Origin: Bacillota bacterium
Lineage (GTDB): Bacteria > Bacillota > Dehalobacteriia > UBA4068
Length of the DNA stretch: 64,000 nucleotides
Assembly (NCBI GenBank): GCA_031553915.1
Contig: JAVBKT010000009.1
Coordinates: forward strand, 12,520 to 76,519
Direction of reading: 5' to 3'
Shown here piece by piece: positions 32,906 to 64,000 of this stretch. The translations under genes and the position numbers were made by a program. Every line of letters begins with the position of its first letter. The stretch's first letter is position 1. The notes beneath the pieces were generated by a model that searched no databases, had not been told where the DNA came from, and worked only from the letters and a program-made list of their open reading frames with translations.

Positions 32906-32943
32906 CAATATTTGGGCTTGCTTGTCCATTTATCTACATATGC

Positions 32944-33034: not shown

Positions 33035-33511
33035 TTAGTCACTAAGAGCATTATCTATCAATAGCATCAACTCTAGTGCACTGCGAAAGCTGATTTCCAG
33101 ATTCTTGTCCATCCACACCAGGCTACCCTGCCAACTGGCATTTTTACGGAAAACAACTTTAACAGAAAAGGTTGCCAGCTTGCCACAAGGGATATTCACC
33201 TCAACATCCCTCTTGATGCCAGTCTCTGCGGCTTCCTTTTGGTCCAGATCAGAGCCAAAACCTCGTTTTTGAGAAAAGGCTTGCGGGTATCCTGTATCAT
33301 CCAGCAATTGTTCCTGCAAAAGAAGCAGTTGCATAGCATTATCAAAAGTTTTCTCTTTGGCATAATATGGATGATAAAACACGCCCGACAACCTTTTTTC
33401 ATCATAATTATTAATAGCCACAATACTGGGGCTACTGATGGTAGAAAAGGGTACGTTTGTCATAGGCTGTTTTTCCATAGAATTTGTGCATGCTAAGCCA
33501 AAACTTAACAT
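33035..33511 (-). CDS. Hypothetical protein
   Basis: 158-aa ORF with no recognisable motif. Confidence 0.35.
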   Translation of the reverse strand: MLSFGLACTNSMEKQPMTNVPFSTISSPSIVAINNYDEKRLSGVFYHPYYAKEKTFDNAMQLLLLQEQLLDDTGYPQAFSQKRGFGSDLDQKEAAETGIKRDVEVNIPCGKLATFSVKVVFRKNASWQGSLVWMDKNLEISFRSALELMLLIDNALSD

Positions 33512-34145
33512 CCTCCGATGTTATATAGTAGAACCTGATAATAATATTTTAGAAACAAATTTCTTTCTCTAAAATCAATTATACTAAACAAAAGTTACAT
33601 TAAAATTACATTTCGCATTTTTCTTTACATTTATTTAATAATTTTATAAAATATCACCAAGAATTCTCATTAACACACTAAGGGATCGCTCGACATAGTC
33701 CTAATTGCCGAACTTTATAATGGAGGTATTACCTGACTTAAGATATCATTGTCTATAAACACGGAGGTTATACATTAAGCGTTTGTATATAAGTATTATT
33801 TACTCAAATATTATAGTTAATTTTCCTTTGCAAAAAAATATTTAAAATTGCCAATCTGTCAAGAATATAAACACTATTGGCAATATGAACGGTGTTTTTG
33901 CAAAATTAAACCACTAGCAAAAATCTCTTAAAATAAAATCCATATTTTTATCTAATTCTTCAAAATAATTAATTATTAATATTTATTATCACTTAATCTT
34001 TACCAAACAGATATAGCTATGCTATAATTATAATAACTTTATTTTTACACATTTTTGGCAATAAAATTTATTGTCAATTTCATAGATAATGTATCTCAAA
34101 ACTGTGTTAATAAAATATCTCACTGCGTTTTATGGAGGTTTCGCA

Positions 34146-35921
34146 ATGGAGAAAACTTTTATCGCTATGTTTGGCAGCCTTGCGCTGCCAGTAATTGTTT
34201 GCGAAAACAACAAAGACTGGCCGGTGGTATATATGAACCCGCACGCCGGTTTACTTTTGGCCCCTACCTATTCAGTAAACAAACTGATTGGCGCTTCCGG
34301 CACTGATCATTTATATAGCATTGTTAATTTTATCAACAATAAAGACTATGATTTATTGCGGCAAATTGCCGCCAACAGCGGCTATATAGAGGATTTTCAT
34401 ACAGAGATTAATACCTTTGAGCAAAGCAAAATATCTGCAGCCTTATTCGGGGTCAATCTTACCGGTTCCGATGGTAAGGATTATTTTGTTTTATATGTTC
34501 TAAATAATAGCCAAGCAACACAAAATGAACATGAACACCAGGTCAGCGTGCTCCTGACTAATGCCTTTATGGCAGAGGATGTTGATCTGACCATTAATAA
34601 TGTTCTAAATATCGCCGGCCGCACAGCAGAAGTCAGCCGGGTGTATGTTTTTGAAGAAACCTCGCCGACCATGACCGCCAACACCTATGAATGGTGTGCG
34701 GCAAACATTGCGCCCGCTATTCAGGATTTACAAAACCTGCCCAAGGAAGACTACAATTTTGATGTTATCGTTAATTCCGGCATGTATATCACCGATGATG
34801 TGAGCCGCCTGCCTGCTGATGACCGAGAAATTTTGGAAATGCAGGGTATCAAATCTTTGGCTATTATCACTCTCTATGACAAAGGACATCCCTTTGGCTA
34901 TTGCGGTTTTGATGACTGCGAAAGGACGAGAAACTGGAGCAATGATGAAATTCAATATTTAAAAAGCATTTCCGCCCTGCTTTCGGCTTTGCTCATACGC
35001 AGAAATGCCGAGCGCCGTGTCACTGATACGCTGAATATTTTGCAGCTAATCTCCGACGCCTCTAAAGATATTATGTATGCCAATGATATTGAGGAATATA
35101 ATTTGCTCTTTGTTAACCGGGCCTTGGCCGAGAGCCTGGGCAAAACTCCGGAGCAACTGATCGGCAAAAAATGCTATCATATGCTGCATAAAAACCAGAC
35201 CGGCCCTTGCGATTTTTGCCCGATACCCAAGGTCAAATATGATGCTGAAAATCAACGCTCCGAGGCATATACCTGGGAGGTACATAATGATATTGTTGAT
35301 AAAACCTATTTGGCAACAGATACGCTTGTGCGCTGGACAGACGGGCGTCTGGTGCATACGGAAACTGCGGTGGATATTTCCCGCCGCATTGCCAATGAAC
35401 AACAACTGCGCTATTATGCCTCCACCGATGTCATGACCGGGATCAGTAACCGCGAATGGGGCGCTAATACTCTTACTGAAAAGCTGAGTACAAATGCTTG
35501 CGGCAGCTTAGTCTTCCTGGATATTGACGGGCTGAAAATGGTTAATGATACCTACGGACATGCGGCAGGCGACACTCTACTGAAAACTACTGTACAAATG
35601 GTGCTTGACCATGTTGGGGAGGAGGCTTTTTTCTGCCGCTGGGGCGGTGACGAGTTTTTGCTGTGGCTGCCGCAAGAGGTGAAGGCGGCACAAGCCATTA
35701 TTAATAATATCCTAGCTGCCATGCATACCTATAACCAAACCAATCATAACCCGTTTATTCTTTCTTTTAGCTATGGCATAGTGCCCTTTGCCCACACGGA
35801 GGGAAAGGCCAATCTTGACGCTTTGGTCACATCAGCTGACCAGCTGATGTATGCGCACAAGATGGACAAAAGGGGCCGCTTAAAAAGACGCAGAAGAGGC
35901 GATGCTCCGCAGCAATATTAG
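34146..35921 (+). CDS. Sensor diguanylate cyclase (N-terminal sensor region, PAS-like region, C-terminal GGDEF)
   Basis: RWGGDEF active-site motif and LDIDGLKMVNDTYGHAAGD. The start was chosen after the GGAGG SD. Confidence 0.85.
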   Translation: MEKTFIAMFGSLALPVIVCENNKDWPVVYMNPHAGLLLAPTYSVNKLIGASGTDHLYSIVNFINNKDYDLLRQIAANSGYIEDFHTEINTFEQSKISAALFGVNLTGSDGKDYFVLYVLNNSQATQNEHEHQVSVLLTNAFMAEDVDLTINNVLNIAGRTAEVSRVYVFEETSPTMTANTYEWCAANIAPAIQDLQNLPKEDYNFDVIVNSGMYITDDVSRLPADDREILEMQGIKSLAIITLYDKGHPFGYCGFDDCERTRNWSNDEIQYLKSISALLSALLIRRNAERRVTDTLNILQLISDASKDIMYANDIEEYNLLFVNRALAESLGKTPEQLIGKKCYHMLHKNQTGPCDFCPIPKVKYDAENQRSEAYTWEVHNDIVDKTYLATDTLVRWTDGRLVHTETAVDISRRIANEQQLRYYASTDVMTGISNREWGANTLTEKLSTNACGSLVFLDIDGLKMVNDTYGHAAGDTLLKTTVQMVLDHVGEEAFFCRWGGDEFLLWLPQEVKAAQAIINNILAAMHTYNQTNHNPFILSFSYGIVPFAHTEGKANLDALVTSADQLMYAHKMDKRGRLKRRRRGDAPQQY

Positions 35922-40612: not shown

Positions 40613-40797
40613 CGGCTACAAATACAGTTTCCGCATAAAGCAGGGTAGCAAAAATCAAGTATTACATATGCGAATAATCATATTGACAGCAGTGCTAATA
40701 TTATCGAAAAGTCTATTGAATAATTACATAGCTATTGGTATAATTAGAAAGAATTACTGCAATTATGCACTATTTTGCCTTGAGGATGCTGTTTTTT

Positions 40798-42909
40798 ATG
40801 GAAACATTATTTGGCAAACTGGAAAGCTCCTTTCTGGTTCGAACAATCCGTAATGGCTTATTGATGACTATCCCGATCTTAATGATCGGTTCTTTTGCTT
40901 TGATTTTTAATAATTTACCGATAGAGGGCTATCGTAACTTTATTGCCTCTGTTGCTAATGGCGCGCTGGTTGATTTTTTTGTCTTTGTTAATCAGGGTAC
41001 TTTTGGCCTGCTTTCTATTTATATGGTTTTTTGCCTCAGCCTTAGCTTTGCCAGAGAGCATACGCATACCGTGCGCTTTATTTATGGGGTGCCGCTAACT
41101 TCCTTGATCTGCTTTGTTATCCTAAGCGGCATTTCCTCAGAAAATTTTGATATCAGCTTTTTTGGCAGCCGTGGCGTTTTTACGGCCATTTTCTGCGCCT
41201 TGATCGGCTCTGCCTTATACATCCAGTTTAGCAAATGGTCTAGCAAACGCAAGCGCCGCCTCTGGGCAGAAGGCGCTGATGTTGAATTTAATAATGCTAT
41301 TTCTGTTATTATACCGATGGTTGGCGTCACCGTAATTTTTGCTGTTTTCAACCTGCTGCTTGTTGATATTTTTAATGTTTCCGGACTGCAAGAGCTATTT
41401 ATCCGCTCTACGGACGCGCTTTTCCATGGTATTGACAACGGCTTTTGGAGCGGATTATTATACGTTTTCCTTTCCAGCCTGCTGTGGTTTTTTGGCGTGC
41501 ATGGCAGCGATGTCCTGGAAACAGTCAGCCAGAGCCTGTTTGTGCCTGTGGCCTCCCAAAATGCCGCCAATATTGCCGCCGGTCTGGAAGCTACCGAAAT
41601 TGTCTCCAAATCTTTTATGGATATTTTTGTCTTTATGGGCGGTTGCGGTACCTCTCTTGCTTTAATCCTCGCTTTGCTGATCTTCAGCAAACGGCGCGCT
41701 AACCGCTCGCTGAGCCGGATGGCAGCTCTGCCCGTGCTGTTTAATATTAATGAGCTGCTCATTTTTGGTCTGCCCGTCATTTTGAACCCGCTGTTTATTT
41801 TTCCCTTCATTCTCACTCCGGTTGTCTCTTATCTGCTTGCCTATGGAGCGACTGCCATCGGTCTAATGCCAGTTATAGCCGAGGAAATACATTGGACAAC
41901 CCCTTTCATCCTCGGTGGATGGACAGCCAGCGGATCATTGGTCGGCGCTATTGTCCAGCTGGTAACTATTGCCATCGGAATAGTCATCTATCTGCCCTTT
42001 GTGCGCCGCTATGATGACTATATCGTCAAAAACAGTATTCGTGGCGTGAGTAAACTAGCTGAAGTTTTGCGGGATAGCGAGGAAAACAATACCCCTATCA
42101 CCCTCACCCAGCTGCGCAGCTCCCGCGGGGCCTTAGCAAAAACCCTGGCGGCGGATTTGCAAAATGCGATCAATAAACAAGAGCTGACTATGTTCTATCA
42201 GCCCCAGTTTGACAACCATGACAAATGTACCGGCGTGGAAGCGCTTTTGCGTTGGAAGCATCATCAGGTTGGCTATATTTATCCGCCGCTGATTATTAAA
42301 CTGGCTGATGAAGCTGATATGCTGGAGACGATGGAGCGGCAGATCATCCTGATGGTGGCCAAGGACCGGCAAAGGATAGGCGAAATTCTTGGCGATGACG
42401 TCAAGGTCAGCGTCAATGTCTCCGGCAAAACTATTCAAAGCGAAAGCTTTGCTAATTATCTGCAAAAATTAATCAGCAGCGGTATGGCGGACAAAGGCAG
42501 CCTTTGGTTGGAAATCACCGAGCAGATGGCCTTCCTCACCAGCCATAATGAGGAAGTATTCAGCCGTATCCGTTCTCTTGGCTACCCAATGGCCATAGAC
42601 GATTTTTCCATGGGCCATACCTCCATAAAATATCTGCAAAACAACCACTTTGATATGGTTAAGCTCGATGGTTCTCTCGTTACTAATCTGACAGATAATG
42701 ACCGCGCCAGAGAAATTGTCGCCTCTATTGTCTATTTATCCAGATCTCTCGGCTTTGATGTTCTGGCGGAATTTGTCGAAACGCGTGAGCAACAAAAAAC
42801 ATTAGAAGATATCGGTTGCTATAAATATCAGGGATATCTCTATTCACCGGCAGTGCCATTGGAGGAGTTGGCCAATATCCGCTTCAAAGATAAAGCAAAA
42901 ATATCATAA
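40798..42909 (+). CDS. PTS EIIC-like (lactose/cellobiose type) membrane domain fused to a C-terminal EAL c-di-GMP phosphodiesterase domain
   Basis: The N-terminal segment IRNGLLMTIPILMIGSFALIFNNLPIEGY resembles the CelB/ChbC EIIC start. The C-terminal domain has EALLRW and DDFSMGHTS motifs. Confidence 0.75.
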   Translation: METLFGKLESSFLVRTIRNGLLMTIPILMIGSFALIFNNLPIEGYRNFIASVANGALVDFFVFVNQGTFGLLSIYMVFCLSLSFAREHTHTVRFIYGVPLTSLICFVILSGISSENFDISFFGSRGVFTAIFCALIGSALYIQFSKWSSKRKRRLWAEGADVEFNNAISVIIPMVGVTVIFAVFNLLLVDIFNVSGLQELFIRSTDALFHGIDNGFWSGLLYVFLSSLLWFFGVHGSDVLETVSQSLFVPVASQNAANIAAGLEATEIVSKSFMDIFVFMGGCGTSLALILALLIFSKRRANRSLSRMAALPVLFNINELLIFGLPVILNPLFIFPFILTPVVSYLLAYGATAIGLMPVIAEEIHWTTPFILGGWTASGSLVGAIVQLVTIAIGIVIYLPFVRRYDDYIVKNSIRGVSKLAEVLRDSEENNTPITLTQLRSSRGALAKTLAADLQNAINKQELTMFYQPQFDNHDKCTGVEALLRWKHHQVGYIYPPLIIKLADEADMLETMERQIILMVAKDRQRIGEILGDDVKVSVNVSGKTIQSESFANYLQKLISSGMADKGSLWLEITEQMAFLTSHNEEVFSRIRSLGYPMAIDDFSMGHTSIKYLQNNHFDMVKLDGSLVTNLTDNDRAREIVASIVYLSRSLGFDVLAEFVETREQQKTLEDIGCYKYQGYLYSPAVPLEELANIRFKDKAKIS

Positions 42910-46393: not shown

Positions 46394-46942
46394 ATGTGCA
46401 CAAATCTGCAAAAAACCCTTGCCAAACATTGCGGACCGGTATTACTGAACAAAAAACCGGCAACATTGCTTTCTTTGCCCCGTGCAGAGCGCAAAGAGGT
46501 GCTGGCGCTTTCCGGCAACCATATTAAGGCAGCAGTATTACGCTTTAACCAGGACAAGGATCTACTGTTGCTTTATCAGCCCCAGCTGCTTGAGGCAGCA
46601 TTAATGCACGAAGAGGCCGTGGAAATTCTCACCCGCTTTGATTATCCGCTGGGGCAAGGGCTAGCCAGGATCATCCACCATTTGCGCCTGCGGATTAGCG
46701 CCAGTGCGGAATTCCCGCATGAGGTGGGCCTTTTCCTTGGCTATCCGGTAGCGGACGTGGCAGGATTTATCGAACACAAAGGCCATAATTATAAAATTGC
46801 CGGCGACTGGAAGGTTTATGGCAGTGTTCATTTGGCGCAAAACCTTTTTGTTGAGCACCGAAAATGCCGCAACTATCTGCTGCACTATGTGGAAAACGGC
46901 GGAAACCTTCATAGCCTCTGCTTCAATATGACAAGTGGCTAA
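46394..46942 (+). CDS. DUF3793 family protein (paralog of 30636..31205)
   Basis: Conserved FPHEVGLFLGYPVADVAGF and GDWKVYG motifs. Confidence 0.7.
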   Translation: MCTNLQKTLAKHCGPVLLNKKPATLLSLPRAERKEVLALSGNHIKAAVLRFNQDKDLLLLYQPQLLEAALMHEEAVEILTRFDYPLGQGLARIIHHLRLRISASAEFPHEVGLFLGYPVADVAGFIEHKGHNYKIAGDWKVYGSVHLAQNLFVEHRKCRNYLLHYVENGGNLHSLCFNMTSG

Positions 46943-53137: not shown

Positions 53138-53866
53138 ATGCGCATGACTTTCCGTAATACCTCAACCCTATCTTTGATTCTCTCCACTGTTATTGTTCTG
53201 GCTCTTGCCAGCGCTGCTTATTATTTGCTGGTTATCTTGCCCAATGAGAGCTGGACAGGGCTATTCCCCATCGTTTTTCAGTGGATTGATCTGCTGTTTT
53301 TGCTGATAGGTGGCGGCAGCCTGGCCCTGTTAATGATGCTTTTTGTGCGGCTGGTGCCGTCTGCTGATTATTTTTATAGTGACTCCGTGCGGCTGCTGGC
53401 AGATAAATTGCCTTTGGGGTGGGGAGCTGTTTTCTTTTTGCTTAATGCTTTTGCCGAAGAAGTGCTGTTCCGCGGCGCCATTCAAGAGTGGCTGGGTCTG
53501 ATCCCGGCGGCCTTGATTTTCACCGTGGTGCATGTCGCCTATTATAAAAAGCCCTTGATGCTGCTCTATGTTTTGGGTACCGGCCTGCTTTTGGGTTTAG
53601 TGTATCTTTGCTCCGGCTCTTTATGGATTTGTACGCTCTCCCACGCTTTTGTCAATTGGCTGACCATTTGGATGATTAAACGCGGCGCTATTGCCTATCG
53701 CCCCAGCGAGACAAAAATTGATGAGGCCAAAGAGGAAGACCCGGCTGACGAGCTGGTCAAAGAACAAAGCTCAGAACAAGCGCGGCAAACTGCGCTGGAT
53801 GATACCGCCAACGAGGACGCAGCTTTGCCGGATGAAGCTCCAGAGAAAACCGCTGACAGCGAGTAA
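53138..53866 (+). CDS. CPBP (CAAX) family intramembrane metalloprotease with an acidic C-terminal tail
   Basis: EEVLFRG (EExxxR) motif, plus HVAYY and SHAFVNW motifs. Confidence 0.8.
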   Translation: MRMTFRNTSTLSLILSTVIVLALASAAYYLLVILPNESWTGLFPIVFQWIDLLFLLIGGGSLALLMMLFVRLVPSADYFYSDSVRLLADKLPLGWGAVFFLLNAFAEEVLFRGAIQEWLGLIPAALIFTVVHVAYYKKPLMLLYVLGTGLLLGLVYLCSGSLWICTLSHAFVNWLTIWMIKRGAIAYRPSETKIDEAKEEDPADELVKEQSSEQARQTALDDTANEDAALPDEAPEKTADSE

Positions 53867-53891
53867 AAATATATACCTGAATAAAGACTAT

Positions 53892-53926
53892 AAAAAAAGA
53901 ACAAGTGATAACTTGTTCTTTTTTTC
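53892..53926. terminator. Bidirectional terminator (aaaaaaagaacaagt / acttgttcttttttt)
   Basis: Perfect 15-bp stem. Confidence 0.8.
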
Positions 53927-53953
53927 ATAATCTAATCGTCCAAATAATAAAGC

Positions 53954-55171
53954 TTATTCCCGGACCAGCGCCATGCTCATACAACGCGGGCCGCCACGGC
54001 CCCGCACCAGTTCGCTGCCCTCAATTTCCAGCGTCTCAATGCCTGCTTCACGCAAGCAACGGTTAGTAGCCTCATTGCGGTTATAAACAACCACCCGCCC
54101 CGGAGCAATACAAAGAGTATTGGCAGCATCATTCCACTGTTCACGGGCAGCAACACGGCTATTGCCGCCGCCGCTCAAAATCATCCGTACATCAGGCAGG
54201 CCCAGAGCGCTGCTCAATGCCTTGCGCAAGCTTTCATGCTGCTTGAACTGTAGGCAGCCGGTTTCCTCTCCTTCGGCACGGGTCATTTCCACAACAATGC
54301 ACTCATCAATCACCTTAGGATAAATAACAAAGGACTCCCTATCCACCATGGTCATAACTGTATCAAGATGCATAAAAGCACGCACCGGCGGCAGCTGTAC
54401 TGCTAAAACCTTACTAAAACCACTATGCATATTCAAAATCTGCCTGGCTAAATATTCTACTGTATGAAAAGTAGTGCGCTGAGAAATGCCTATTGCCACC
54501 ACTTTTTCCGAAAGCACAAGAATATCTCCGCCCTCGATATGCATATGATAGCGGTCAGGATTATAGAGCAATCTTGTGCCGGTAAAGCAACTATGGTGAT
54601 GCAAAACCAAGTGTATCAGCACGCCTTCACGGCGGCGCGCTTTGGTGCTCATATAACAAGGCACCATGGACGAGCCTATCGCCGCTGCCGGATCGCGCAT
54701 AAAATACATATTCGGCAAAGGATTGAGCAGATGCGTTCTATCCATAGGCAGATAATCAGCTAAAGTTTCTTTTTGTATCGCAACATCTTCCGGGTAAACC
54801 CCGCAGATGGCATATGCTGTCTTTAGCTCCGGCCTGCTGGTCATAAACATCTCGCGAAAACGGCGCATTTCCTGCCGGTCACGCCGGATTTCATTATGGA
54901 TCAGCTCATCAACAAATTTCTCTGATACTTCTTTGATCGAAAACACATCACGCAGGAAATCTTCCACATAGACGACATCTACTCCCTCTTTGCGCAAGAG
55001 GTCAGCAAAAGCGTCATGCTCTTCCCTCATTCTGGCAACCCAGGGAATATCATCAAAAAGCATTTCTTCCATCTGGCGCGGGACAAAATGCTCCATTTCT
55101 AAGCCCGGGCGGTGCAGCATCACACGTTTAAGCCGGCCTGTTTCACTTTTTACAGAGACATAACTTCCCAT
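53954..55171 (-). CDS. arcA: Arginine deiminase
   Basis: About 405 aa with the ADI family pattern and C-terminal catalytic GGPRCMSM. The start was chosen after the AAAAGGAGG SD. Confidence 0.9.
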   Translation of the reverse strand: MGSYVSVKSETGRLKRVMLHRPGLEMEHFVPRQMEEMLFDDIPWVARMREEHDAFADLLRKEGVDVVYVEDFLRDVFSIKEVSEKFVDELIHNEIRRDRQEMRRFREMFMTSRPELKTAYAICGVYPEDVAIQKETLADYLPMDRTHLLNPLPNMYFMRDPAAAIGSSMVPCYMSTKARRREGVLIHLVLHHHSCFTGTRLLYNPDRYHMHIEGGDILVLSEKVVAIGISQRTTFHTVEYLARQILNMHSGFSKVLAVQLPPVRAFMHLDTVMTMVDRESFVIYPKVIDECIVVEMTRAEGEETGCLQFKQHESLRKALSSALGLPDVRMILSGGGNSRVAAREQWNDAANTLCIAPGRVVVYNRNEATNRCLREAGIETLEIEGSELVRGRGGPRCMSMALVRE

Positions 55172-55537
55172 AGATAGCCTCCTTTTAGGTTTTAAGTGCG
55201 GCAGCAAGTATCTGCCTCAAGGGGGCAAAATTTGCTCTATTTAGTTTTCTATACAATCAATTTTTTATTCTCATTATTAAAAAGAATAAAAACAAATTAC
55301 ACTCAGATTTTTATCTTTAAAGAAGAATTAACTTCTCAATTATCCTGAATAAAAGTATACATATTATACTAAGATAAGTTGTTTTTTGCAAGTGTCTATT
55401 TAGTGTTTATTGTAAGAGAGCCAGTCATTATTAATATAAACCGCTGCTCCGCGCCATAGAAGTTTGATAATCGTTTTTCATGGCGATATTTTTCATAAAC
55501 ACTGCTCTGCTTGATAATCAGTTTTGCTTATATTTAT

Positions 55538-55577
55538 AAAAAAGAAGTAAGATGTAAACATCTTACTTCTTTTTTAT
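55538..55577. terminator. Bidirectional terminator (gaagtaagatg / catcttacttc plus TTTTTT)
   Basis: Perfect 11-bp stem after the UPF0182 gene. Confidence 0.8.
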
Positions 55578-55597
55578 ATACGCGTTTTGCTTGCTAG

Positions 55598-58489
55598 CTA
55601 TTGATTGTTGACCAATTGCTGAATATAATTTTCCACCTGCTGCATATATTCACCATAGCCTGCCCAGTCGCCGTTCCTTTGCGCATTCAGCGCATTATCC
55701 AGCGCCTCTTGCGCTAATTGGGCAAGATCACTGGTGCCGGAGGGAAGATTGGTGGACGGTTCATCCGGCCCTAAGCTAGGATCTTCAGGATCATCGCCAC
55801 CAGGCTCGCTTTCTTCATAGCCACTGCTGGCGCCGGCGCCAAACATCGAATCCAAAGCCTCGGCCAAAGTTTCTTCATAGGCTATCCTCTCATTATAGTA
55901 GAGGATAATCCTTTTCACTTCCGGCAGTGAGGAGCTGGCGCTCTCCAGATAAATAGGCTCAACATAAATCAGCGAATTTTCAATGGGGATAACAAACATA
56001 TTGCCCCTGGTGTAGGTAGAACCGGCGCTGCTCCACAGCGTAAAGTCCTGGGCAATCTCTGTATGCTGGTTAATCCGCGCCTCTATCTGACGCGGGCCGT
56101 AAATGACGCGGTCTTTAGGCAGCTGGAACAAAATCAGCTCCCCGTAATGATCGCCATCGCTCCTCACCATCAGCAAGGCTGTCATATTATCTTTGCCCGA
56201 TGGAGTATAGGGAATGGACGTCACAAACTCCGCGCTATCCTCACCGGGTATTTTCATAATATAGTAGGTTGGCGTCATTGCCTGCTCAGTAGTGCCATAA
56301 ATCTCCTTAGCAATAGCCCAGCCGTCCTCGTTCTGATAGAACATATTAACATCAGTCATATGATATTTGGTATAGACCTCAGACTGAATGGCAAACAGGG
56401 TATTGGGATAACGCAAATGCGCCTGCAAGGCTTTTGGCATGTCACCGATATCCTTGAACAAAGCCGGATAAATTTTCTGCAAAGTCATGGCAATCGGGTC
56501 CTGATCATCGACAATATAAAAGCTGGTATCGCCATTATAAGCATCAATAACTACTTTAACAGAATTGCGGATATAATTAATGCCAGTAGCGACATCATTA
56601 ACCTTGTACGGTTCAGAATAAGGATAATATCCGGAGACAGTATAGGCATCGATAATCCAATAGAGGCGTCCGTCAACAGTGACAATATACGGGTCGTCAT
56701 CATAGCTGAGGAAAGGAGCAATAGTCCGCACTCTGTCCATAATATTGGTGTTGATAATAATCTTAGAATCGCTATCAATATTGCTGGAAACAAGCAATTT
56801 CAGGCTGCCTTCGCGAATAGAGAACAGGATGCGGTTCAAGAAGCTAAGATGAATACCGGCATCACCGTCATATTCAGTATAGACATTATTGTCTTCGCCG
56901 GATGAGGGGTAATCGAATTCTTTTTGGTCAGTATTAACGACAAGATAGGTATTGTCGCTCTCACCAAAATAAATAGCCGGCTGGGTAATGTCAATTTCTT
57001 CTACATCAGAGACAGGCGGGATGCTATCAATCAGCATATCCGGCTGGCCGCTTTCTGTTACCTTATCCACGCGGGAAAGAGTGATGCCATAGCCGTGGGT
57101 ATAGATCAGATGACGGTTAAGCCATTGATCTGTGATTTGCGCTCCATTAAGCTCGCGCGCAGCCAGGAAGGTCTGCGTATATTCGCCATTGACCATATAG
57201 CGGTCAACATCAACATCATTAAACTGGTAATAAAGACGTATGCTCTGCGTCTGGTTATAGAACTTGAGCGCAGGCTCATAGTCATTGATGCGGATATTGG
57301 ATATTGTGCCCATATTATTGACAATATCAGCAGAGGTAAGGGTGTTATTGGCAGCAAAATCCCTGATCTTAATATCCTGCAAATCATAGGCATAACGCGT
57401 GAAGGCAATATTGTTAGCCAAATACTCGCTTTCCTTATTCAGTTCATCAGGGGAAACTATCAGCCCCTGCACTGCCGCGCCAATAACGCCGCCCAAAATA
57501 GAAACAGCAATCATCAGCACCGGCACTGCCAAGACAGTTTTCAAGCGTCTTTTGTTCAAACCAATCACAAACATCACTGCCCCGGCAATAGCCAGTACAA
57601 TCAGCAGGCGGTATACCCATAAAGAAATATTGATATCCGCATAGCCTGCGCCGTATACCACACCGGAGCTGGAGGTATAGAGCAAGGTAAACTGTTTGAG
57701 GAAATAATGCATGGCAATCATCAAAAACAGCAATACGCCCAGCACCCGGAATTGCTTACCGGCGATACCGAGCAAGCGGCCCAGGGTATCACGGTTAAGC
57801 TGGCTTTGCCCCCGGCGCTGATTAGCAAAGGGGCTGTTGCCCTGGTTGCCCTGGCCAAACATATTACCAAACATGTTGCCAAAAGGAGATTGTTGCTGTT
57901 GTTTGGGTTCTTCGCGCGGTTCTTCTGCTTCCACTTCGTCAAAGAAATGCGGCTTGCGGTATCTAAACAGCACCAGATAGAAAATAACATTCACCAGCGC
58001 AAAACCAAGAATGATCGGAATCAGCAAGCTGTTGACCGCAGAAATAAACTCCAGTCTGAAAATATAAAAACTGACGTCATAGCCAAAGATGGGGTCAGCA
58101 ATGCCAAAATCCGTACTATGCATGAACTGCAACATCTCAAACCAGAGATTGTTGGCGACAGCGAAAGCGCTGATCAAAGCAAAGACGCCACTGATGGCTG
58201 CGACAATGCCATTTACTTTTTTCTCAGTGCCCAGCAAATCATAGCCGCCAATTTTTTTATAATAGCCGCGCTTCATCGCCATCAGATAAAAATAGCAGAT
58301 GACAAAAATGAGCGCAAAAATTGGCAAGCCATAGAGCAGCTTGGTGGTTATTTCTTTGAAGAAAACACTGACATAGCCCATTTCCCTAAACCAAATCCAG
58401 TTAGTGAAGAAATTGGCCAAAGCCAGAAATAGCACGATAAGCAGCACAATACCGCCGATCAATAAGATTTTACCTTTTCTGGTTTTCAA
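55598..58489 (-). CDS. UPF0182 family large membrane protein
   Basis: 963 aa. The N-terminal TM block with FTNWIWFREMGYVSVF matches the UPF0182 signature, and a large extracytoplasmic domain follows. Confidence 0.75.
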   Translation of the reverse strand: MKTRKGKILLIGGIVLLIVLFLALANFFTNWIWFREMGYVSVFFKEITTKLLYGLPIFALIFVICYFYLMAMKRGYYKKIGGYDLLGTEKKVNGIVAAISGVFALISAFAVANNLWFEMLQFMHSTDFGIADPIFGYDVSFYIFRLEFISAVNSLLIPIILGFALVNVIFYLVLFRYRKPHFFDEVEAEEPREEPKQQQQSPFGNMFGNMFGQGNQGNSPFANQRRGQSQLNRDTLGRLLGIAGKQFRVLGVLLFLMIAMHYFLKQFTLLYTSSSGVVYGAGYADINISLWVYRLLIVLAIAGAVMFVIGLNKRRLKTVLAVPVLMIAVSILGGVIGAAVQGLIVSPDELNKESEYLANNIAFTRYAYDLQDIKIRDFAANNTLTSADIVNNMGTISNIRINDYEPALKFYNQTQSIRLYYQFNDVDVDRYMVNGEYTQTFLAARELNGAQITDQWLNRHLIYTHGYGITLSRVDKVTESGQPDMLIDSIPPVSDVEEIDITQPAIYFGESDNTYLVVNTDQKEFDYPSSGEDNNVYTEYDGDAGIHLSFLNRILFSIREGSLKLLVSSNIDSDSKIIINTNIMDRVRTIAPFLSYDDDPYIVTVDGRLYWIIDAYTVSGYYPYSEPYKVNDVATGINYIRNSVKVVIDAYNGDTSFYIVDDQDPIAMTLQKIYPALFKDIGDMPKALQAHLRYPNTLFAIQSEVYTKYHMTDVNMFYQNEDGWAIAKEIYGTTEQAMTPTYYIMKIPGEDSAEFVTSIPYTPSGKDNMTALLMVRSDGDHYGELILFQLPKDRVIYGPRQIEARINQHTEIAQDFTLWSSAGSTYTRGNMFVIPIENSLIYVEPIYLESASSSLPEVKRIILYYNERIAYEETLAEALDSMFGAGASSGYEESEPGGDDPEDPSLGPDEPSTNLPSGTSDLAQLAQEALDNALNAQRNGDWAGYGEYMQQVENYIQQLVNNQ

Positions 58490-58702
58490 AATAGAAAAAC
58501 TCCTTTCTTAATTGCAGCTAGTCTTCTCAACAAAACAGCGTTGCTCATCTCAAAACTTAAATAATAATGATTATTATATCATCATCTCACCCTTTTGACT
58601 AGTGGTAGCCATAAGAGTTAGTAAACAAAAACAGCGTGTTACCTTTTATAATATTACCTAAATATGAATTACCTATTAAATACGACAAAACACGCAGCAA
58701 AG

Positions 58703-58735
58703 AAAAACTGAGCCGCTTAGAGGCTCAGCAAGTGT
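58703..58735 (-). terminator. Terminator of the che operon (ctgagcc/ggctcag plus a T-run on the minus strand)
   Basis: Stem-loop with an A-run on the plus strand upstream. Confidence 0.65.
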
Positions 58736-58766
58736 ATTAATTATGTTTAGGCTTATACTAGCAAGC

Positions 58767-59759
58767 TTATTTCCAGACAAAATCGCTAATCGCAGCGGAA
58801 ATCATCTGCAGCGGCAGCTGTTTTTCCACTGCTCCTAGATCAAAAGCTGCTTTAGGCATACCATAGACAATTGAGCTTTGTTCATCCTGACCAATAGTAT
58901 GGCAGCCTTGCTCATACATCATTTTCAAGCCCTTGGCTCCGTCTTTGCCCATGCCCGTTAAAAGAATCCCCAAAGTATTGCTATTACCGGCATAGTGCCC
59001 CACAGAATCAAATAATATATCTACGCTGGGGCAAATAGGGCTGCCGGTAGTGTTTTCCACACAGCTGACCCCATATTTGCCGCCGGCAGAGGTCAAGGTC
59101 ATATGATAGCCGCCCGGCGCAATATAAACATGGCCAGCAATCAGCATATCGCCATTGACTGCCTCTTTAACCGAAAGGCGGCACAGCGAATTAAGCCGCT
59201 CCGTAAAGGAGGTGGTAAATTTAGGCGGCATATGCTGGGCGATAACGAGCGGCGGCATTGCTGAAGGCAGGTTTTTGATCACAGTTTCAATGGCCTCTGC
59301 GCCGCCGGTGGACGCGCCAATAGCAATCAGCTTATTGCTGGCAATGGCTACCTTGTCCTGGTTAAAGTCTTCCTGGTTAATGATAGCCCTGATTTTGGCG
59401 CGGATCAGATTAAAAAACAGCTCGGTGCCCTTGGCATCTGTTTCCTTGGGCTTATCAAAAAAGGTAACTGTTTTAATTTGCTCTGCACTCTCGCGCATCT
59501 TTGGCTCGGAGCTCATCATAATCACCGGCAAAAAATATTGCGGCAATAATTGCTGGATAAAATCAATACCATTCATCCGATCCATAAACACGTCGACCAA
59601 AAGCACATCCGGATGAAACTGTACTATTTGCCGGCTGGCCTCAAAGGGGTCGGCAGCCTTGGCCACCACCTTAATATTAATATCCTTTTCCAGCTCTTTA
59701 TGCACCAGCTCGCGCATAAACAGGGAATCATCAACAACAATAACTTTAACCGGTTTCAT
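58767..59759 (-). CDS. cheB: Chemotaxis response regulator protein-glutamate methylesterase
   Basis: N-terminal REC domain (KVIVVDDS…) plus a C-terminal CheB methylesterase domain (GASTGG, catalytic-serine region). Confidence 0.9.
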   Translation of the reverse strand: MKPVKVIVVDDSLFMRELVHKELEKDINIKVVAKAADPFEASRQIVQFHPDVLLVDVFMDRMNGIDFIQQLLPQYFLPVIMMSSEPKMRESAEQIKTVTFFDKPKETDAKGTELFFNLIRAKIRAIINQEDFNQDKVAIASNKLIAIGASTGGAEAIETVIKNLPSAMPPLVIAQHMPPKFTTSFTERLNSLCRLSVKEAVNGDMLIAGHVYIAPGGYHMTLTSAGGKYGVSCVENTTGSPICPSVDILFDSVGHYAGNSNTLGILLTGMGKDGAKGLKMMYEQGCHTIGQDEQSSIVYGMPKAAFDLGAVEKQLPLQMISAAISDFVWK

Positions 59760-60598
59760 TATTTTGCCACCTTTCTGTATACTGATGGCATCACATATTC
59801 AAGACCAGAGCCACTATGGTCTATTGTCTCGGACATGCCAATAAAGAGATAGCCGCCGTCATCCAGAACATCATAAAACTTTTTGACTAAGCGGAGTCTC
59901 GTTTCCTCATCAAAGTAAATCATCACATTGCGGCAAAAAATAAAGTGGAAAGGCTGCTTAAAAACAAAAGGATCTTTGACCAAATTAAGCTTACGGAAAA
60001 TAACCTCTTCTTTAATATTCGGCGCAATCACCACACTGTCCGGGTCCTGCGGATTGGCGATAAAATACTTCTCTGCCCAGCACGGGTTCAGGTCTTTAAT
60101 ACTATCCTTGGCATAGGCGCCGACCAAGGCCTTTTGCAGGGCAAAGGTAGAAATATCTGTAGCCAAAATCTTGGCGTCCCAAAAGGGACGGTTAATCCCC
60201 AAAAAATCCGCAACAATAATGGCCAGGGTATATGGCTCCTCGCCGGTGGAGCATCCTGCGCTCCAAATACGCAAATCCCTCTTGCTTTTTTCTTTTTCAA
60301 ACAAATAGGGCAAAACCTCGCCCGCTACCACATCAAAATGAAATGACTCGCGATAGAAAAGCGTATAATTGACAGTAAGCCCATTAATAAAATCAGAAAC
60401 AGCTACGCCGGAGATATCGCGACAGACAAAATCAAAATACTCGGCAAAGGTTGAGAAATGATTTTCCTTCACCAACCGTTGCAGGCGCATTTGCACAAAA
60501 GTCTTTTTCGCTGTGAGGTCAAGGCCAAAGTTGACCTTGACAAAATCTATCAGAGAGGCAAACTCTTCATCTGTTATTTGCAGCATGGCAACAGGCAT
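59759..60598 (-). CDS. cheR: Chemotaxis protein methyltransferase
   Basis: LTVNYTLFYRE and RIWSAGCSTGEEPYTLA motifs. The start was chosen after the AAGGAG SD. Confidence 0.85.
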   Translation of the reverse strand: MPVAMLQITDEEFASLIDFVKVNFGLDLTAKKTFVQMRLQRLVKENHFSTFAEYFDFVCRDISGVAVSDFINGLTVNYTLFYRESFHFDVVAGEVLPYLFEKEKSKRDLRIWSAGCSTGEEPYTLAIIVADFLGINRPFWDAKILATDISTFALQKALVGAYAKDSIKDLNPCWAEKYFIANPQDPDSVVIAPNIKEEVIFRKLNLVKDPFVFKQPFHFIFCRNVMIYFDEETRLRLVKKFYDVLDDGGYLFIGMSETIDHSGSGLEYVMPSVYRKVAK

Positions 60599-60608
60599 AT
60601 CCGGCTCC

Positions 60609-61076
60609 TTATCCCAAACAATAACAAAAACGCAACTGTAACTCTTGAGCGGTTGTAACCACAACAAAAACAAACAAGCCCTGGCTTTCAGTCTGCATGG
60701 CCAGACAAAGGTCGCCATCAGGAGCGCTAATCTCGCTAAATGTGCTCTGCTCTGAAGAGAGCCGGACTATATTTGCAGCGTAAATATTCAAAAACTCCGC
60801 TAAAACCGCCTCTGCATTAATCGCCAGATCAAAATTATAACGGCTGGTGAACAACTCTACCACACCGTCAATCTCGTCTTTTTTCAGCAACAATAAAAGC
60901 TTTCCCATATATCCGCCAGAAAAGCTCAGCGCTGCCATAATCTTTTCATCCGGCAGCAAAGAAAACTGATCTTTAACAACAATATCCGTGGCACTGATAT
61001 TAATACCAAAGATATTCTTCATCGTTTGTTTGGAAAGATCCTCAAATACTTCAATAGCAACAGCCATGACACCCAT
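60609..61076 (-). CDS. CheX/CheC-like chemotaxis phosphatase family protein
   Basis: 155 aa CheC-like fold pattern (ATDIVVK…FSGG) located between cheY and cheR. Confidence 0.55.
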   Translation of the reverse strand: MGVMAVAIEVFEDLSKQTMKNIFGINISATDIVVKDQFSLLPDEKIMAALSFSGGYMGKLLLLLKKDEIDGVVELFTSRYNFDLAINAEAVLAEFLNIYAANIVRLSSEQSTFSEISAPDGDLCLAMQTESQGLFVFVVVTTAQELQLRFCYCLG

Positions 61077-61119
61077 CCTTAAATATTATAATAAATAATA
61101 TTAGCAAATATGGAGAATA

Positions 61120-61476
61120 TTACATGGCCTCTATGATTGAAATCAGGCCGCTTTCATCAAAAGGCTTCACTACAAAACTTTTTGCCCCTGATAAAATTGC
61201 CTCCTTGACATATTTCTCCTGCCCTAAAGCAGAAACCATTACTACACTCGCATCAGCGTCAAGGGCTATAATCTCTTTTAAGGCAGCGATACCATCCTTG
61301 TTTGGCATCGTAATATCCATCGTCACCAGATCAGGCTGAAGCTCCTGATAAAGGCGCACAGCTATCTCTCCGTCCTCAGCTTCGCCAACAACGTTATAGC
61401 CATTCTTTTCCAGCATTCCTTTGATTAAAACGCGCATAAAAGTGCCATCGTCAACGATCAGTACTTTTTTGCTCAT
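61120..61476 (-). CDS. cheY: Chemotaxis response regulator CheY
   Basis: Stand-alone REC domain: DDGTFMR, phospho-acceptor MDITMP and K-containing VVKPF. Confidence 0.9.
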   Translation of the reverse strand: MSKKVLIVDDGTFMRVLIKGMLEKNGYNVVGEAEDGEIAVRLYQELQPDLVTMDITMPNKDGIAALKEIIALDADASVVMVSALGQEKYVKEAILSGAKSFVVKPFDESGLISIIEAM

Positions 61477-61673
61477 ATGACACCCTCCATAAAGTCTCAG
61501 ACAATAACATTTTCATTCTAGCATAAATTTTTTGAGTATTCAATAGTGTCAAAATAAAATCTAATACTAACAACCCCTATCTATACATACATATTCTTAC
61601 TATTTAATAGGTTGACTGTACTATAAAAAAATTGTATAATTTGTATAAAAATAAAGTGAGTGGGGCGTATATT

Positions 61674-63524
61674 ATGAAAAACATCAAGCTTTCCTCAAAA
61701 ATGATTATCAGTTTTGCGATCCTCACAATTTTTACCATTGGTATTGTCATCGGCGGTATTTTTGGCATTACACAGCTCAATAAGGGTGTCAACATGCTCT
61801 ACGAAAATGTCGTTGTCGGCATGGAGCATATCAACCGCATCAAAACAAATATCCTTGAGCAAAGAGTGCTGGTGCAGCAATATGCCGATAATATTGTTGA
61901 CACAGCAAAAGCTGCTGAAATAAAAGAACAAATTCAAACTAACCTAGAAACCAACGAAAAAAATATTACTGATTATCAAGAGAATGTGGTACAAAGTACT
62001 ACTGTTGTGGCAAACGGCTTATTGGATGAAGCAACATTGCAAGAGCTGTTGGATATGGTAGATCAGTTTGTGGTGTTAAACGATGACTATTTTAGTACCA
62101 CCCTTAGCGCTATCATTGCCAAACAAAGTGTGACTACCGAGGAAATCAGCAGTTTTCTTAATAGCGAAAATTCGCAGCAAATGATGGACCTGCTTAATAT
62201 CGCCTCCAATTTCTATATCGCGCAATCAGAAAAGAGTGTGACCCTTACCGACAGCAGCAGCAGAATGATTAATATCCTTATCTATGTTGCGCTGGCTATT
62301 TACCTGCTGGTTGCCGGGCTGCTGATTGTGCTTATCCCCCGCAGCATCGCTAAACCGATCCGCCATCTGATTAAGGTTGCTGATGCTGTGGCAGTTGGCG
62401 ATATGAGCAAAAAGGTTAATGCTAAATATAGCTCCCGCAAAGATGAGGTGGGTATGCTGGCTGAGGCTCTGAACAGGATGCAGCTGGAAATTAACCGCCA
62501 AATCGAATTATTAGAGGCTCTTGCTAGAGCTGACCTGACTATTACCCCGCAGCTGCGCAGCGAGCAGGATACAATGGGCAAAGCCCTGATCTCTTTGAGC
62601 GAAAGCCTTAATCAGGTGGTTTCTGATGTCAGTTTTTCCACAGAAAACGTCACAAAAGAGGCCAAGCTGGTGGCCAGCCAAAGCCAAGAGCTGGCGCAAG
62701 GCACAACCGAACAGGCTGCCTCGGTAGAAGAGCTGTCCAGCGCCTTTTTCCAGATTTCCTTGAACACCAAAGAAAGCGCTAACCTGGCCAGCAAGGCTGC
62801 TAGCGTTTCCGATGAGGTTAAAAACAAAGCTATTGAAGGTTCGCAGATGATGAGCCAAATGATTCAGGCTGTGCAAGACGCTGCGACTGCCAGCAAGAGT
62901 ATTGATAAGATTATTAAAGCCATTGAAGAGATTTCCTTCCAGACCAATATCTTAGCTTTGAATGCGGCAGTAGAGGCCGCCCATGCCGGGCAAAACGGCA
63001 GCGGTTTTGCTGTTGTGGCTGCAGAAGTGCGCAGCCTGGCCTCCAAAAGCGCAGCCTCTGCCAAAGAAACAAGTATCCTGATTGCCAATACCCTGGATAA
63101 GGTCAACTTGGGCGCAGAGATTGCCGGTGAGACCTCTGATTCATTCCAAAAAATTGTTGACGGTGTCATGGAATCAACTAAAATGATTACTGATATCGCC
63201 AAGTTTTCCGAAGAACAAGCCTCTGCTATTGACCAAATCAATAGCGGCATCGGCCAGGTTGCCCAGGTTATACATATTAATAGCAGCGCTGCGGAAGAAT
63301 GCGCGGCAGCAGCGGAGAAATTGAGCTCCCAGGCTAAGGCTATGGAGCATCTGCTTTCCCGTTTCCGCAGAAAAGACAGTGACAACAACATCATTCACGG
63401 CCGCCGCGATGATGACGCGATGTCCTCTCCGTCAGCAAAAATAATAGCTGACCCTGATTTCAAAATTGATCTTTCGCCGACCATGCCTCCCTCTATTCCC
63501 AATGATGATTTTGGCAAATATTAA
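61674..63524 (+). CDS. Methyl-accepting chemotaxis protein (sensor domain, HAMP domain and MCP signalling domain)
   Basis: TM1, periplasmic region, TM2 and HAMP domain, then an MCP signalling domain with QTNILALNAAVEAA. Confidence 0.9.
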   Translation: MKNIKLSSKMIISFAILTIFTIGIVIGGIFGITQLNKGVNMLYENVVVGMEHINRIKTNILEQRVLVQQYADNIVDTAKAAEIKEQIQTNLETNEKNITDYQENVVQSTTVVANGLLDEATLQELLDMVDQFVVLNDDYFSTTLSAIIAKQSVTTEEISSFLNSENSQQMMDLLNIASNFYIAQSEKSVTLTDSSSRMINILIYVALAIYLLVAGLLIVLIPRSIAKPIRHLIKVADAVAVGDMSKKVNAKYSSRKDEVGMLAEALNRMQLEINRQIELLEALARADLTITPQLRSEQDTMGKALISLSESLNQVVSDVSFSTENVTKEAKLVASQSQELAQGTTEQAASVEELSSAFFQISLNTKESANLASKAASVSDEVKNKAIEGSQMMSQMIQAVQDAATASKSIDKIIKAIEEISFQTNILALNAAVEAAHAGQNGSGFAVVAAEVRSLASKSAASAKETSILIANTLDKVNLGAEIAGETSDSFQKIVDGVMESTKMITDIAKFSEEQASAIDQINSGIGQVAQVIHINSSAAEECAAAAEKLSSQAKAMEHLLSRFRRKDSDNNIIHGRRDDDAMSSPSAKIIADPDFKIDLSPTMPPSIPNDDFGKY

Positions 63525-63564
63525 TCACCCTGCCGGTGTTTGTTAAAAAAAACGGAGGTCTACT

Positions 63565-64000
63565 TTGGACACAAATGCGAAAAAAATACTGGTTGTCGAT
63601 GATACTGCCTTTATGGTAGCTGTTATCTCCGCTGCGCTGCGGGGCGAGGGCCACGAGGTCAGCACGGCCAGCAGCGGTGAGGAAGCGCTGGAGCTTCTCA
63701 AAACCATTAAACCTGAGCTGATTCTGCTGGACGGGATTATGACCGGCATGAGCGGCTATGAGGTTTTATCTGTTTTGCGCAGCGATTTCCGCTATAATCT
63801 AACCCCTATCATCATGCTGACCGGCCAATCTGATGATGAAGAAAAGTTTAAAAGTCTGGAAATGGGTGCGGACGACTATATTGTCAAGCCCTTTAACAAC
63901 CGAGAGCTAGTGGCGCGTGTACGCAATACCCTGCTGCGCCTGGAGCGCAGCCGCGGCGCTAACCCCCTGACCGGGCTGAGGGGCAATAATGATATTGAAA
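63565..64000 (+). CDS. Response regulator with N-terminal REC domain and the start of a GGDEF domain (PleD/WspR-like); 3'-partial at the window end
   Basis: TTG start after the AACGGAGG SD. REC motifs VVDDT and LLD. NPLTGL marks the beginning of a GGDEF domain at the window edge. Confidence 0.75.
   Translation, partial: MDTNAKKILVVDDTAFMVAVISAALRGEGHEVSTASSGEEALELLKTIKPELILLDGIMTGMSGYEVLSVLRSDFRYNLTPIIMLTGQSDDEEKFKSLEMGADDYIVKPFNNRELVARVRNTLLRLERSRGANPLTGLRGNNDIE

Follow-up and report, generated by a model that had tools for sequence, protein, structure and literature searches.

The window analysed here, a stretch of 64,000 nucleotides (nt) from a Bacillota bacterium, ends in a chemosensory gene cluster that comprises two divergent blocks: (i) on the minus strand, cheY, a divergent cheX, cheR and cheB, and (ii) on the plus strand, a chemoreceptor gene (MCP) followed by a response regulator gene that runs off the edge of the window. 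An earlier note on this DNA had described the cluster as a pathway whose output appears to be a regulator built of a receiver (REC) and a GGDEF domain, mirroring the control of cyclic diguanosine monophosphate (c-di-GMP) by the Pseudomonas Wsp system, and had presumed cheA and cheW to lie beyond position 64000. The regulator proves to be a REC-GGDDF protein encoded directly upstream of cheA and cheW, an arrangement conserved among its close relatives. The features of the cluster within the window are the following, with lengths in amino acids (aa) and expectation values abbreviated as E:

58707..58729, minus strand: terminator-like hairpin and T-run just past the cheB stop (consensus scan, pattern match only)
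58767..59759, minus strand: cheB, receiver and methylesterase, 330 aa (Pfam CheB_methylest and Response_reg)
59759..60598, minus strand: cheR methyltransferase, 279 aa (Pfam, and the gene call on the identical contig L081)
60609..61067, minus strand: divergent cheX, CheY-P phosphatase family, 152 aa (synteny and profile search)
61120..61476, minus strand: cheY, single-domain response regulator, 118 aa (Pfam REC, E 7e-29)
61477..61673, no strand assigned: divergent intergenic control region between cheY and the MCP gene (promoter-like pattern matches only)
61674..63524, plus strand: MCP, 616 aa, with 4HB sensor, transmembrane segments, HAMP and signalling domain (Pfam)
63507..63521, plus strand: DFGKY pentapeptide-like tail of the MCP, a candidate CheR/CheB tether (terminal sequence)
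63565..64000, plus strand: first 145 codons of the REC-GGDEF(GGDDF) regulator gene, with a TTG start (Pfam REC, E 9e-28)

The windowed part of the regulator gene ends ...NPLTGLRGNNDIE, its receiver domain leading into ...RSRGANPLTGLRGNNDIE at base 63999. The continuation is provided by a 21-kb contig (L081; Logan SRR23967709) that is 100% identical to window positions 53677-64000 across 10,324 nt and runs on for another 7,476 nt past the window edge. Numbered as virtual window positions, the extension comprises (i) the remainder of the regulator gene, which ends at 64494 and encodes 309 aa in full (P0121); (ii) cheA at 64516-66501, encoding 661 aa with Hpt, a weak P2, dimerisation, HATPase_c and CheW domains; and (iii) cheW at 66522-67052, encoding 176 aa. 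The genes are separated by 40 nt (MCP to regulator), 21 nt (regulator to cheA) and 20 nt (cheA to cheW), so that all parts of the gene set stand in two divergent operons with short gaps, and past cheW the contig encodes a hybrid-cluster protein, ferredoxins and a Crp-family regulator. The cheA and cheW genes thus lie where the earlier note had expected them, and its cheY, cheR, cheB, MCP and edge-cut receiver gene all have Pfam matches within the coordinates that it gave. The CheA protein, the closest solved homologue of which is that of T. maritima (E 1.5e-84), carries no fused receiver, as judged by the lack of any Response_reg match, and the same holds for L001, L082, L083, L085 and L087, five related loci introduced below.

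The regulator, its GGDDF subfamily and its linkage to cheA

The full-length regulator comprises a receiver (E 4.6e-27) and a GGDEF domain (PF00990, E 1.8e-10; 41.2 bits, with 23.8 as the cutoff; positions 6-90 of a 161-position profile) in Pfam, which settles that the domain following the receiver belongs to the GGDEF family as first proposed, with GGDDF as its motif; the L001 orthologue matches PF00990 with E 4.5e-15. In NCBIfam no model attains its cutoff on the regulator, the DgcR model scoring 73 bits against a cutoff of 500. An AlphaFold model built on an alignment of 81 family members reaches a mean confidence score (pLDDT) of 89, and its top Foldseek matches in the PDB are WspR (3BRE, E 1.6e-23), DgcR (E 4.8e-22) and PleD.

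The motif of the window regulator reads HIGGDDF, and the position of the RxxD I-site reads APND. The 120 closest database relatives are all REC-GGDEF proteins of 305-319 aa, their motif being GGDDF in 117 cases and GGDDY in three; none of the 120 carries the RxxD I-site, and the domain starts as PLTGL[R/Q/P]GN compared with the canonical DxLTGLxNRR. Across the 81 aligned family members, the invariant residues comprise (i) D13, D56, T86 and K108 in the receiver and (ii) D164, K169, N172, D173, D181, H207, G209, G210, D211, D212, K294 and K298 in the cyclase domain, D164, K169, N172 and D181 being invariant also in 100 distant representatives. In a HMMER alignment to PleD these four residues correspond to D327, K332, N335 and D344, GGDD 209-212 falls on the GGEEF loop, and the C-terminal Lys of PleD likewise aligns with invariant Lys (K294, K298). 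PleD uses the four positions as metal-binding Asp, phosphate-binding Lys and guanine-reading Asn335 and Asp344, respectively. The family keeps D181, whereas the equivalent Asp is Ser in the Hypr enzymes that make cyclic GMP-AMP (cGAMP).

When all 1.84 billion representatives are searched by HMMER using only the C-terminal domain of the regulator, a large and sharply conserved subfamily emerges, with 434 clusters at E <= 1e-30 (representatives P0242-P0389 examined) and 2,808 at E <= 1e-10. Nearly all of the top 148 representatives read H[I/V/E]GGDDF, and P-x-T-x-L-x-GN is present in 126 of them. Among 100 representatives, the partner domains comprise EAL (33), REC (32), CBS (32), HAMP (21) and the HD-GYP-type HD_5 (2); the subfamily domain is the only output after the receiver in 32 of the 100 and stands alongside HAMP in 21. 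Within the subfamily, EAL and HD-GYP domains occur in the same protein or in neighbouring genes. EAL-CBS-GGDDF proteins with a length of about 770 aa, built like Bordetella DdpB, account for one third of the representatives.

The literature treats GGDDF as a degenerate motif. Geobacter GSU1937 is the first GGDDF enzyme reported to be active; it is active in vivo and makes cGAMP as well as c-di-GMP (PMC8835794). Since the nucleotide- and metal-contacting residues are all conserved, and since the domain is the sole output in receiver- and HAMP-linked proteins, the evidence points to the GGDDF domain of the regulator as an active GTP-using cyclase devoid of product feedback. Two other roles were considered for the domain and set aside. 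A Cas10/mCpol-type cyclase is represented by a single match to the Cas10 palm, which is not significant (E 0.18), and a PopA-like receptor that binds c-di-GMP at its I-site is ruled out by the missing RxxD.

Seven loci link a regulator of this family to chemosensory genes: the window with its extension (L081), L082, L083, L085, L087, L001 and L002. Their regulators are 53-100% identical to that of the window and are encoded directly upstream of cheA-cheW in 7/7 loci, with cheY inserted in one, whereas none of the 13 other family loci having at least 3 kb of downstream flank contains a che gene. Around this core the arrangement varies: the MCP gene lies upstream in four loci and downstream in two, and the cheY-cheX-cheR-cheB block, divergent in the window, is convergent downstream in L001 and L002 and precedes the core on the same strand in L085, giving a single seven-gene operon. 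The regulator and cheA reading frames of L001 overlap by 4 nt. The seven che-linked regulators form a single clade in a neighbour-joining tree (bootstrap 99/100), with an orphan Clostridial group as sister. Monophyly together with the linkage in all seven loci rules out a chance co-location of the regulator with cheA, and the simplest history is that a chemosensory module within Clostridia captured, once, an ordinary two-component regulator of the REC-GGDDF type. Gene content, domain identities, fold, residue invariance and regulator-cheA linkage are accordingly established by this analysis.

Outside the che-linked clade, 5 of the 13 loci encode a sensor kinase of the HisKA/HATPase_c type no more than 5 kb from the regulator, one of these kinases carrying fused GAF and HD-GYP-type domains, another locus has an adjoining HDOD protein, and the Acetivibrio saccincola orthologue is an orphan. 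On the metagenomic contig L092 (10994-13393), a histidine kinase fused to GAF and to an HD-GYP-type HD_5 domain stands beside a REC-GGDDF regulator; such a protein would unite a kinase and a c-di-GMP phosphodiesterase and pair them with a putative cyclase regulator.

Genes for surface polymers or the cell wall adjoin the che cluster in only two to three of the seven loci, the window not being among them. They comprise (i) a pair of MBOAT and AlgX/DHHW-type O-acetylation genes inside or right after the che cluster in L002 (13372-18109) and L082 (5677-13107), L082 having also a GT2 glycosyltransferase gene there, and (ii) directly after cheW, a gene for a YkuD-SH3 protein in L002 and for an NlpC/P60-SH3 protein in L001 (11510-12892). 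These genes of the relatives recall the acetylated cellulose that is under Wsp control in P. fluorescens.

The other chemosensory genes and their surroundings

CheB matches CheB_methylest over the whole profile (E 5.8e-61, positions 1-174 of 174) and Response_reg (E 2.5e-15) in Pfam, and it exceeds the cutoff of an NCBIfam CheB subfamily model (328.7 bits, cutoff 293). The cheR reading frame, which overlaps the cheB start by 1 nt, is open to 60718, and its start at 60598 is taken from the gene call on L081; the product matches Pfam CheR (E 5.9e-54) and CheR_N (E 1.5e-9) and contains no TPR domain. CheY, found as an identical protein on L081 by exact look-up, aligns gaplessly with its nearest solved structure, T. 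maritima CheY (1TMY, E 2.9e-35); according to the alignment and a reading of the sequence, it retains the DD pair, D54 and the Ser/Thr and Lys positions, with an aromatic residue at the switch position.

The 152-aa open reading frame (ORF) between cheY and cheR, described earlier as CheX/CheC-like, has by itself no match in Pfam, NCBIfam or the PDB sequences; a word-indexed protein homologue search returned the query protein only, and a single-sequence AlphaFold model (pLDDT 37) is uninformative. Its identity emerges from its position and its orthologues. In L085 the gene at the same place between cheY and cheR carries CheX (PF13690), and the window protein matches it with a BLASTP E of 6e-12. 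A profile of three positional orthologues matches five PDB chains, all of them CheX or CheC: T. maritima CheX (1SQU/1XKO, E 4e-4, nearly full length) and CheC (1XKR, E 7.5e-3). The three orthologues share an invariant ExxN (E91, N94) and a downstream P116, with E91 and N94 aligning with GELGN of T. maritima CheX. On this indirect but consistent evidence the ORF is accepted as a divergent CheX.

The intergenic region contains a promoter-like TTGACT-17-TATAAT on the plus strand (61612-61640, 11/12 matches), owing to which ATG 61674 is favoured as the MCP start, and a second promoter-like site with TG on the minus strand (61543-61515, 9/12 matches), both being pattern matches only. At the other end of the minus-strand block, the hairpin past cheB has an 8-pair stem with 5 GC pairs and probably marks the end of the cheY-cheX-cheR-cheB operon.

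The chemoreceptor matches MCPsignal (E 6e-41), 4HB_MCP_1 (E 8e-14) and HAMP (E 1e-10) in Pfam. Its signalling domain aligns with E. coli Tsr without gaps (E 6.9e-41), compared with an alignment to T. maritima TM1143 that shows length differences (E 1.6e-15), and for this reason the receptor is assigned, by alignment length only, to the Tsr length class and not to the long class usual in Firmicute flagellar systems. EQ/EE pairs are kept at the positions aligned to Tsr methylation sites 297, 304 and 493; together with CheR and CheB, they supply the components of the methylation-adapting pathway that had been proposed.

The last five residues of the receptor, DFGKY, follow a linker of low complexity that is about 40 residues long. 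The same ending occurs in the cluster receptors of L082 and L087, with GFGKY in L001 and FDDKY in L002, so that FGKY is common to four diverged cluster receptors (window, L001, L082 and L087); the receptors of L001 and L002 share only 34-38% overall identity with that of the window. Docking of CheR on Tar and Tsr requires aromatic residues at positions 2 and 5 of the terminal pentapeptide, and pentapeptide-bearing receptors amount to only 2.9% of those of Clostridiales (PMC7390727). With aromatic residues at positions 2 and 5, a location at the extreme C-terminus and a flexible linker, the tail agrees with the NWETF type and is a candidate tether for CheR and CheB, of a kind rare in Clostridia.

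The remaining 47 proteins predicted in the window were likewise compared with Pfam, and none belongs to the PilZ family. Families of flagella, motors or pili are absent both from the 64-kb window and from the 7.5-kb extension (71.5 kb in total), in agreement with the earlier observation that the cluster has no flagellar neighbours, and none of the flagellar or pilus families occurs within 10 kb in six related loci. CheC, CheD and CheV are likewise missing from window and extension, where Rfam detects no c-di-GMP riboswitch or other RNA family and where no tRNA is found. Two c-di-GMP-related proteins noted previously elsewhere in the window are both real according to Pfam: (i) a GAF-PAS-GGDEF sensor (34089-35921, plus strand; GGDEF E 1.7e-30) with a canonical RWGGDEF and no RxxD I-site, which provides an internal contrast to the HIGGDDF regulator of the same genome, and (ii) a 714-aa fusion of a PTS EIIC domain (E 9e-34) to a full EAL domain (E 2.9e-59) at 40765-42909 on the plus strand, an uncommon domain combination by which c-di-GMP hydrolysis would be tied to the transport or binding of a sugar. 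Because GGDEF and EAL proteins are encoded in the same window, the organism has enzymes of c-di-GMP turnover.

Further features of the window lie outside these subjects. A 1.6-kb AT-rich stretch (15757-17395, GC about 0.40), which contains no ORF of at least 80 aa, Rfam family or tRNA, lies upstream of a gene (17396-19798) whose product is a surface protein of 800 aa, rich in repeats and carrying SLH; another SLH protein, encoded at 20825-22573, is fused to a domain that resembles phosphate-binding proteins. On the minus strand at 12688-13816, a Phage_holin_5_2 holin adjoins a CHAP-domain peptidoglycan hydrolase; the two make up a lysis cassette, and no further phage genes lie close to it. A low-GC island at 30000-34000 (GC 0.37, against about 0.47 elsewhere) comprises three ORFs of 155-207 aa lacking a Pfam match and one DUF3793 gene, a second copy of which is found at 46394-46942 beside a flavodoxin gene.

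Proposed signalling and competing explanations

The reading that we favour, with a confidence somewhat better than even, is a self-contained chemosensory phosphorelay with methylation adaptation and two CheA-dependent outputs; in it we infer phosphotransfer from CheA to the regulator, cyclase activity with its product, and the role of CheY. The 4HB-HAMP chemoreceptor, CheW and CheA would form a complex, and CheR and CheB, possibly docked on the DFGKY tail, would adapt the receptor by methylation. Three receivers have intact phospho-acceptor sites, those of CheY, CheB and the REC-GGDDF regulator, and CheA~P would donate phosphate to each of them, that is, to CheB, to the Thermotoga-like CheY and to the regulator. 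Phosphorylation at D56 would lead the regulator to dimerise through the α5 helix of the receiver and the short linker, as in DgcR and WspR, and the paired GGDDF domains would then make c-di-GMP from GTP, turning receptor occupancy into a second-messenger level as in Wsp. The adjacent CheX phosphatase would keep CheY~P short-lived, and CheY may either control a motor encoded elsewhere or act as a phosphate sink. The original proposal of a REC-GGDEF output therefore stands in part: the regulator is present and linked to cheA, but it is unlikely to be the only output, because a Thermotoga-type CheY and its CheX are conserved in the cluster, and a motility or phosphate-sink branch would coexist with it.

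Several observations weigh against this dual-output scheme. The presence of a motor-type CheY with its phosphatase CheX means that the main output could be motility. No c-di-GMP effector, either a PilZ domain in Pfam or a riboswitch in Rfam, is found near the cluster. The motif departs from the accepted [GAS]G[DE]E[FY] in lacking the fourth-position Glu, the Arg two residues before GG is replaced by His, and the NRR that follows DxLTGL is replaced by GN; in addition, two EAL-fused GGDDF members, PA3258 and DdpB, have no known cyclase activity.

The first rival is an ordinary motility chemotaxis system with flagella encoded elsewhere, in which the REC-GGDDF protein would be a catalytically inert accessory and serve as a sink for phosphate, as an adaptor that senses GTP or as a protein-protein switch. 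Such a system is a serious contender that we nevertheless consider unlikely. CheY is about as near to the flagellar CheY of T. maritima as orthologues usually are (gapless, with the E value given above), CheX is the known phosphatase partner of CheY, and GGDDF is usually scored as degenerate, with PA3258 and DdpB as the members lacking a demonstrated activity. One third of the subfamily carry EAL, a context where GGDEF-like domains often sense GTP, as in C. crescentus PdeA (CC3396). An inert domain is, however, difficult to reconcile with metal-, phosphate- and guanine-contacting residues and a GGDD that are strictly invariant across representatives of less than 50% identity, or with the lack of any other output domain in the 310-aa regulators. 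As for motility, flagellar genes are linked in none of the seven loci, and the receptor belongs to a length class, assigned by alignment length only, unlike that usual in Firmicute flagellar systems.

The two remaining explanations retain the regulator as an active device and change either its product or its kinase. An active GGDDF cyclase might make cGAMP, c-di-AMP or a linear or oligomeric nucleotide, given that the sole GGDDF enzyme shown to be active makes cGAMP besides c-di-GMP, that Cas10 cyclases use GGDD and give a faint palm match to the regulator, and that the loss of the RxxD I-site removes feedback by c-di-GMP. We regard a different product as improbable: the guanine-reading N172 and D181 are invariant, the Ser diagnostic of Hypr enzymes is absent, the Cas10 match falls short of significance, and the neighbours and fusion partners are EAL and HD-GYP domains, which act on c-di-GMP. 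It is still harder to believe that the regulator receives its phosphate from a histidine kinase encoded elsewhere, its place in one operon with cheA being incidental. Family members outside the clade do adjoin HisKA/HATPase_c kinases or are orphans, as in A. saccincola, and the receiver of the regulator is nearer to OmpR- and PleD-type receivers than to CheY; yet the adjacency to cheA is kept in all seven clade members despite rearrangement around the core, no HisKA kinase occurs in any of the annotated che-linked loci, and in L001 the regulator overlaps translationally with cheA.

Beyond the dual-output scheme, a wider hypothesis may be put forward, one that we hold tentatively and think rather less probable than not to be right in full. 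An uncultured Clostridia clade would have independently built a Wsp-like device by capturing a REC-GGDDF regulator into a motility-derived CheA/CheW/CheY/CheX/CheR/CheB module; the GGDDF/PLTxLPGN domains (at least 434 clusters at 50% identity) would form a genuine class of feedback-free cyclases; and receptor adaptation would set a messenger that controls modification of surface polymers or the cell wall. The last element is suggested by the MBOAT/AlgX-type and SH3-domain genes inside or beside the cluster in three relatives.

Comparison with known systems

A chemosensory pathway with a nucleotide-cyclase output is of a kind already known, and the cluster is a new version of it. Its new points comprise (i) a probably independent Clostridia origin, (ii) a retained CheY/CheX branch, (iii) a pentapeptide-tailed Tsr-class receptor, and (iv) an uncharacterised GGDDF subfamily; within the limited coverage of the literature searched, no paper was found that specifically describes a Firmicute or Clostridial chemosensory cluster of the Wsp-like or REC-GGDEF kind. 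REC-GGDEF is a recorded architecture for regulators of the alternative cellular functions (ACF) class (Wuichet and Zhulin 2010, as summarised in PMC3447774), and in that summary the recorded examples are overwhelmingly Gram-negative, often with CheR-TPR. The cluster shares with this class a multidomain REC-GGDEF regulator beside cheA and a lack of linkage to flagella or type IV pili; it differs in a CheR devoid of TPR, a Clostridia-class host and the presence of motility-type CheY and CheX. Judged by gene content rather than by class hidden Markov models, it fits the operational description of ACF-class pathways.

The flagellar system of T. maritima provides the closest solved structures for CheA, CheY and, by profile, CheX. 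The window cluster differs in having neither CheC, CheD or CheV nor flagellar linkage, in a receptor that aligns with Tsr and not with TM1143, and in the extra REC-GGDDF regulator. The long (44-heptad) receptor, CheC/CheD/CheV and flagellar linkage of the Firmicute/Thermotoga F1-type flagellar systems are accordingly all missing from the window and its extension, the receptor being judged by alignment length, even though CheY and CheX do resemble theirs.

For the regulator itself, DgcR of Leptospira biflexa (6ZXB/6ZXM) has the same size of about 300 aa and the same passage from the receiver α5 helix through a short linker into GGDEF. It is recovered with the L001 orthologue by phmmer (E 6.6e-25), as it is with the window model by Foldseek. 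DgcR differs in being a canonical diguanylate cyclase that binds c-di-GMP in the crystal (6ZXM) and has an I-site, 6ZXB being an I-site mutant; to our knowledge it is not part of a chemosensory cluster. GSU1937, PA3258 and DdpB share GGDDF in place of GG[DE]EF, the comparison being by that motif and not by the signature of HxGGDDF with PLTxLPGN, and the EAL-CBS-GGDDF architecture of PA3258 and DdpB is the one seen in a third of the subfamily representatives. GSU1937 is a membrane Hypr enzyme with Ser at the base-reading position where the window family keeps Asp, PA3258 and DdpB are EAL fusions, and none of the three is the receiver-coupled output of a chemosensory pathway. For testing the large HxGGDDF subfamily the window regulator is well suited: being small and soluble, with this domain as its single output and with phosphorylation as a defined on-switch, it is much easier to assay than the EAL-CBS-GGDDF proteins studied so far.

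Experimental dissection of chemosensory pathways that control c-di-GMP levels has been confined almost entirely to Proteobacteria, with Wsp as the example. An independently evolved Gram-positive version with a different kinase architecture would separate the essential features of such pathways from historical accident, and the retained CheY/CheX branch could reveal the way in which a single kinase shares out phosphate to a fast output of the motility type and a slow one acting through a second messenger.

Compared with Wsp, the cluster displays an evident likeness: chemoreceptor, CheW, CheA, CheR and CheB are encoded with a REC-GGDEF regulator away from flagellar genes, the predicted logic by which the receptor state sets cyclase activity is the same, and no PDB structure matches the regulator model better than WspR. 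The differences are equally clear: (i) WspE is a CheA-REC hybrid, whereas the window CheA carries no receiver; (ii) Wsp has two CheW-like scaffolds, WspB and WspD, against one stand-alone CheW in the cluster and the 7.5 kb downstream; (iii) the window cluster adds a stand-alone CheY and CheX; (iv) its receptor is of the Tsr length class with a pentapeptide-like tail; (v) WspR has GGEEF and an RxxD I-site, whereas the window regulator has HxGGDDF and no RxxD; and (vi) the window regulator clade has its origin in a family that is elsewhere paired with ordinary histidine kinases. MCP, CheR and CheB are present as in Wsp, but the hybrid CheA, the two CheW proteins and the GGEEF with RxxD are all missing, which rules out orthology. 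The analogy drawn in the earlier note, a chemosensory pathway coupled to a REC-GGDEF regulator, is therefore reasonable as an analogy, and on its sequence the cluster is classed as a Wsp analogue and not as a member of the Wsp family. Because the regulator clade emerged within a family of ordinary histidine-kinase partners, the resemblance appears convergent, and the cluster is probably an independently evolved Gram-positive counterpart of Pseudomonas Wsp.

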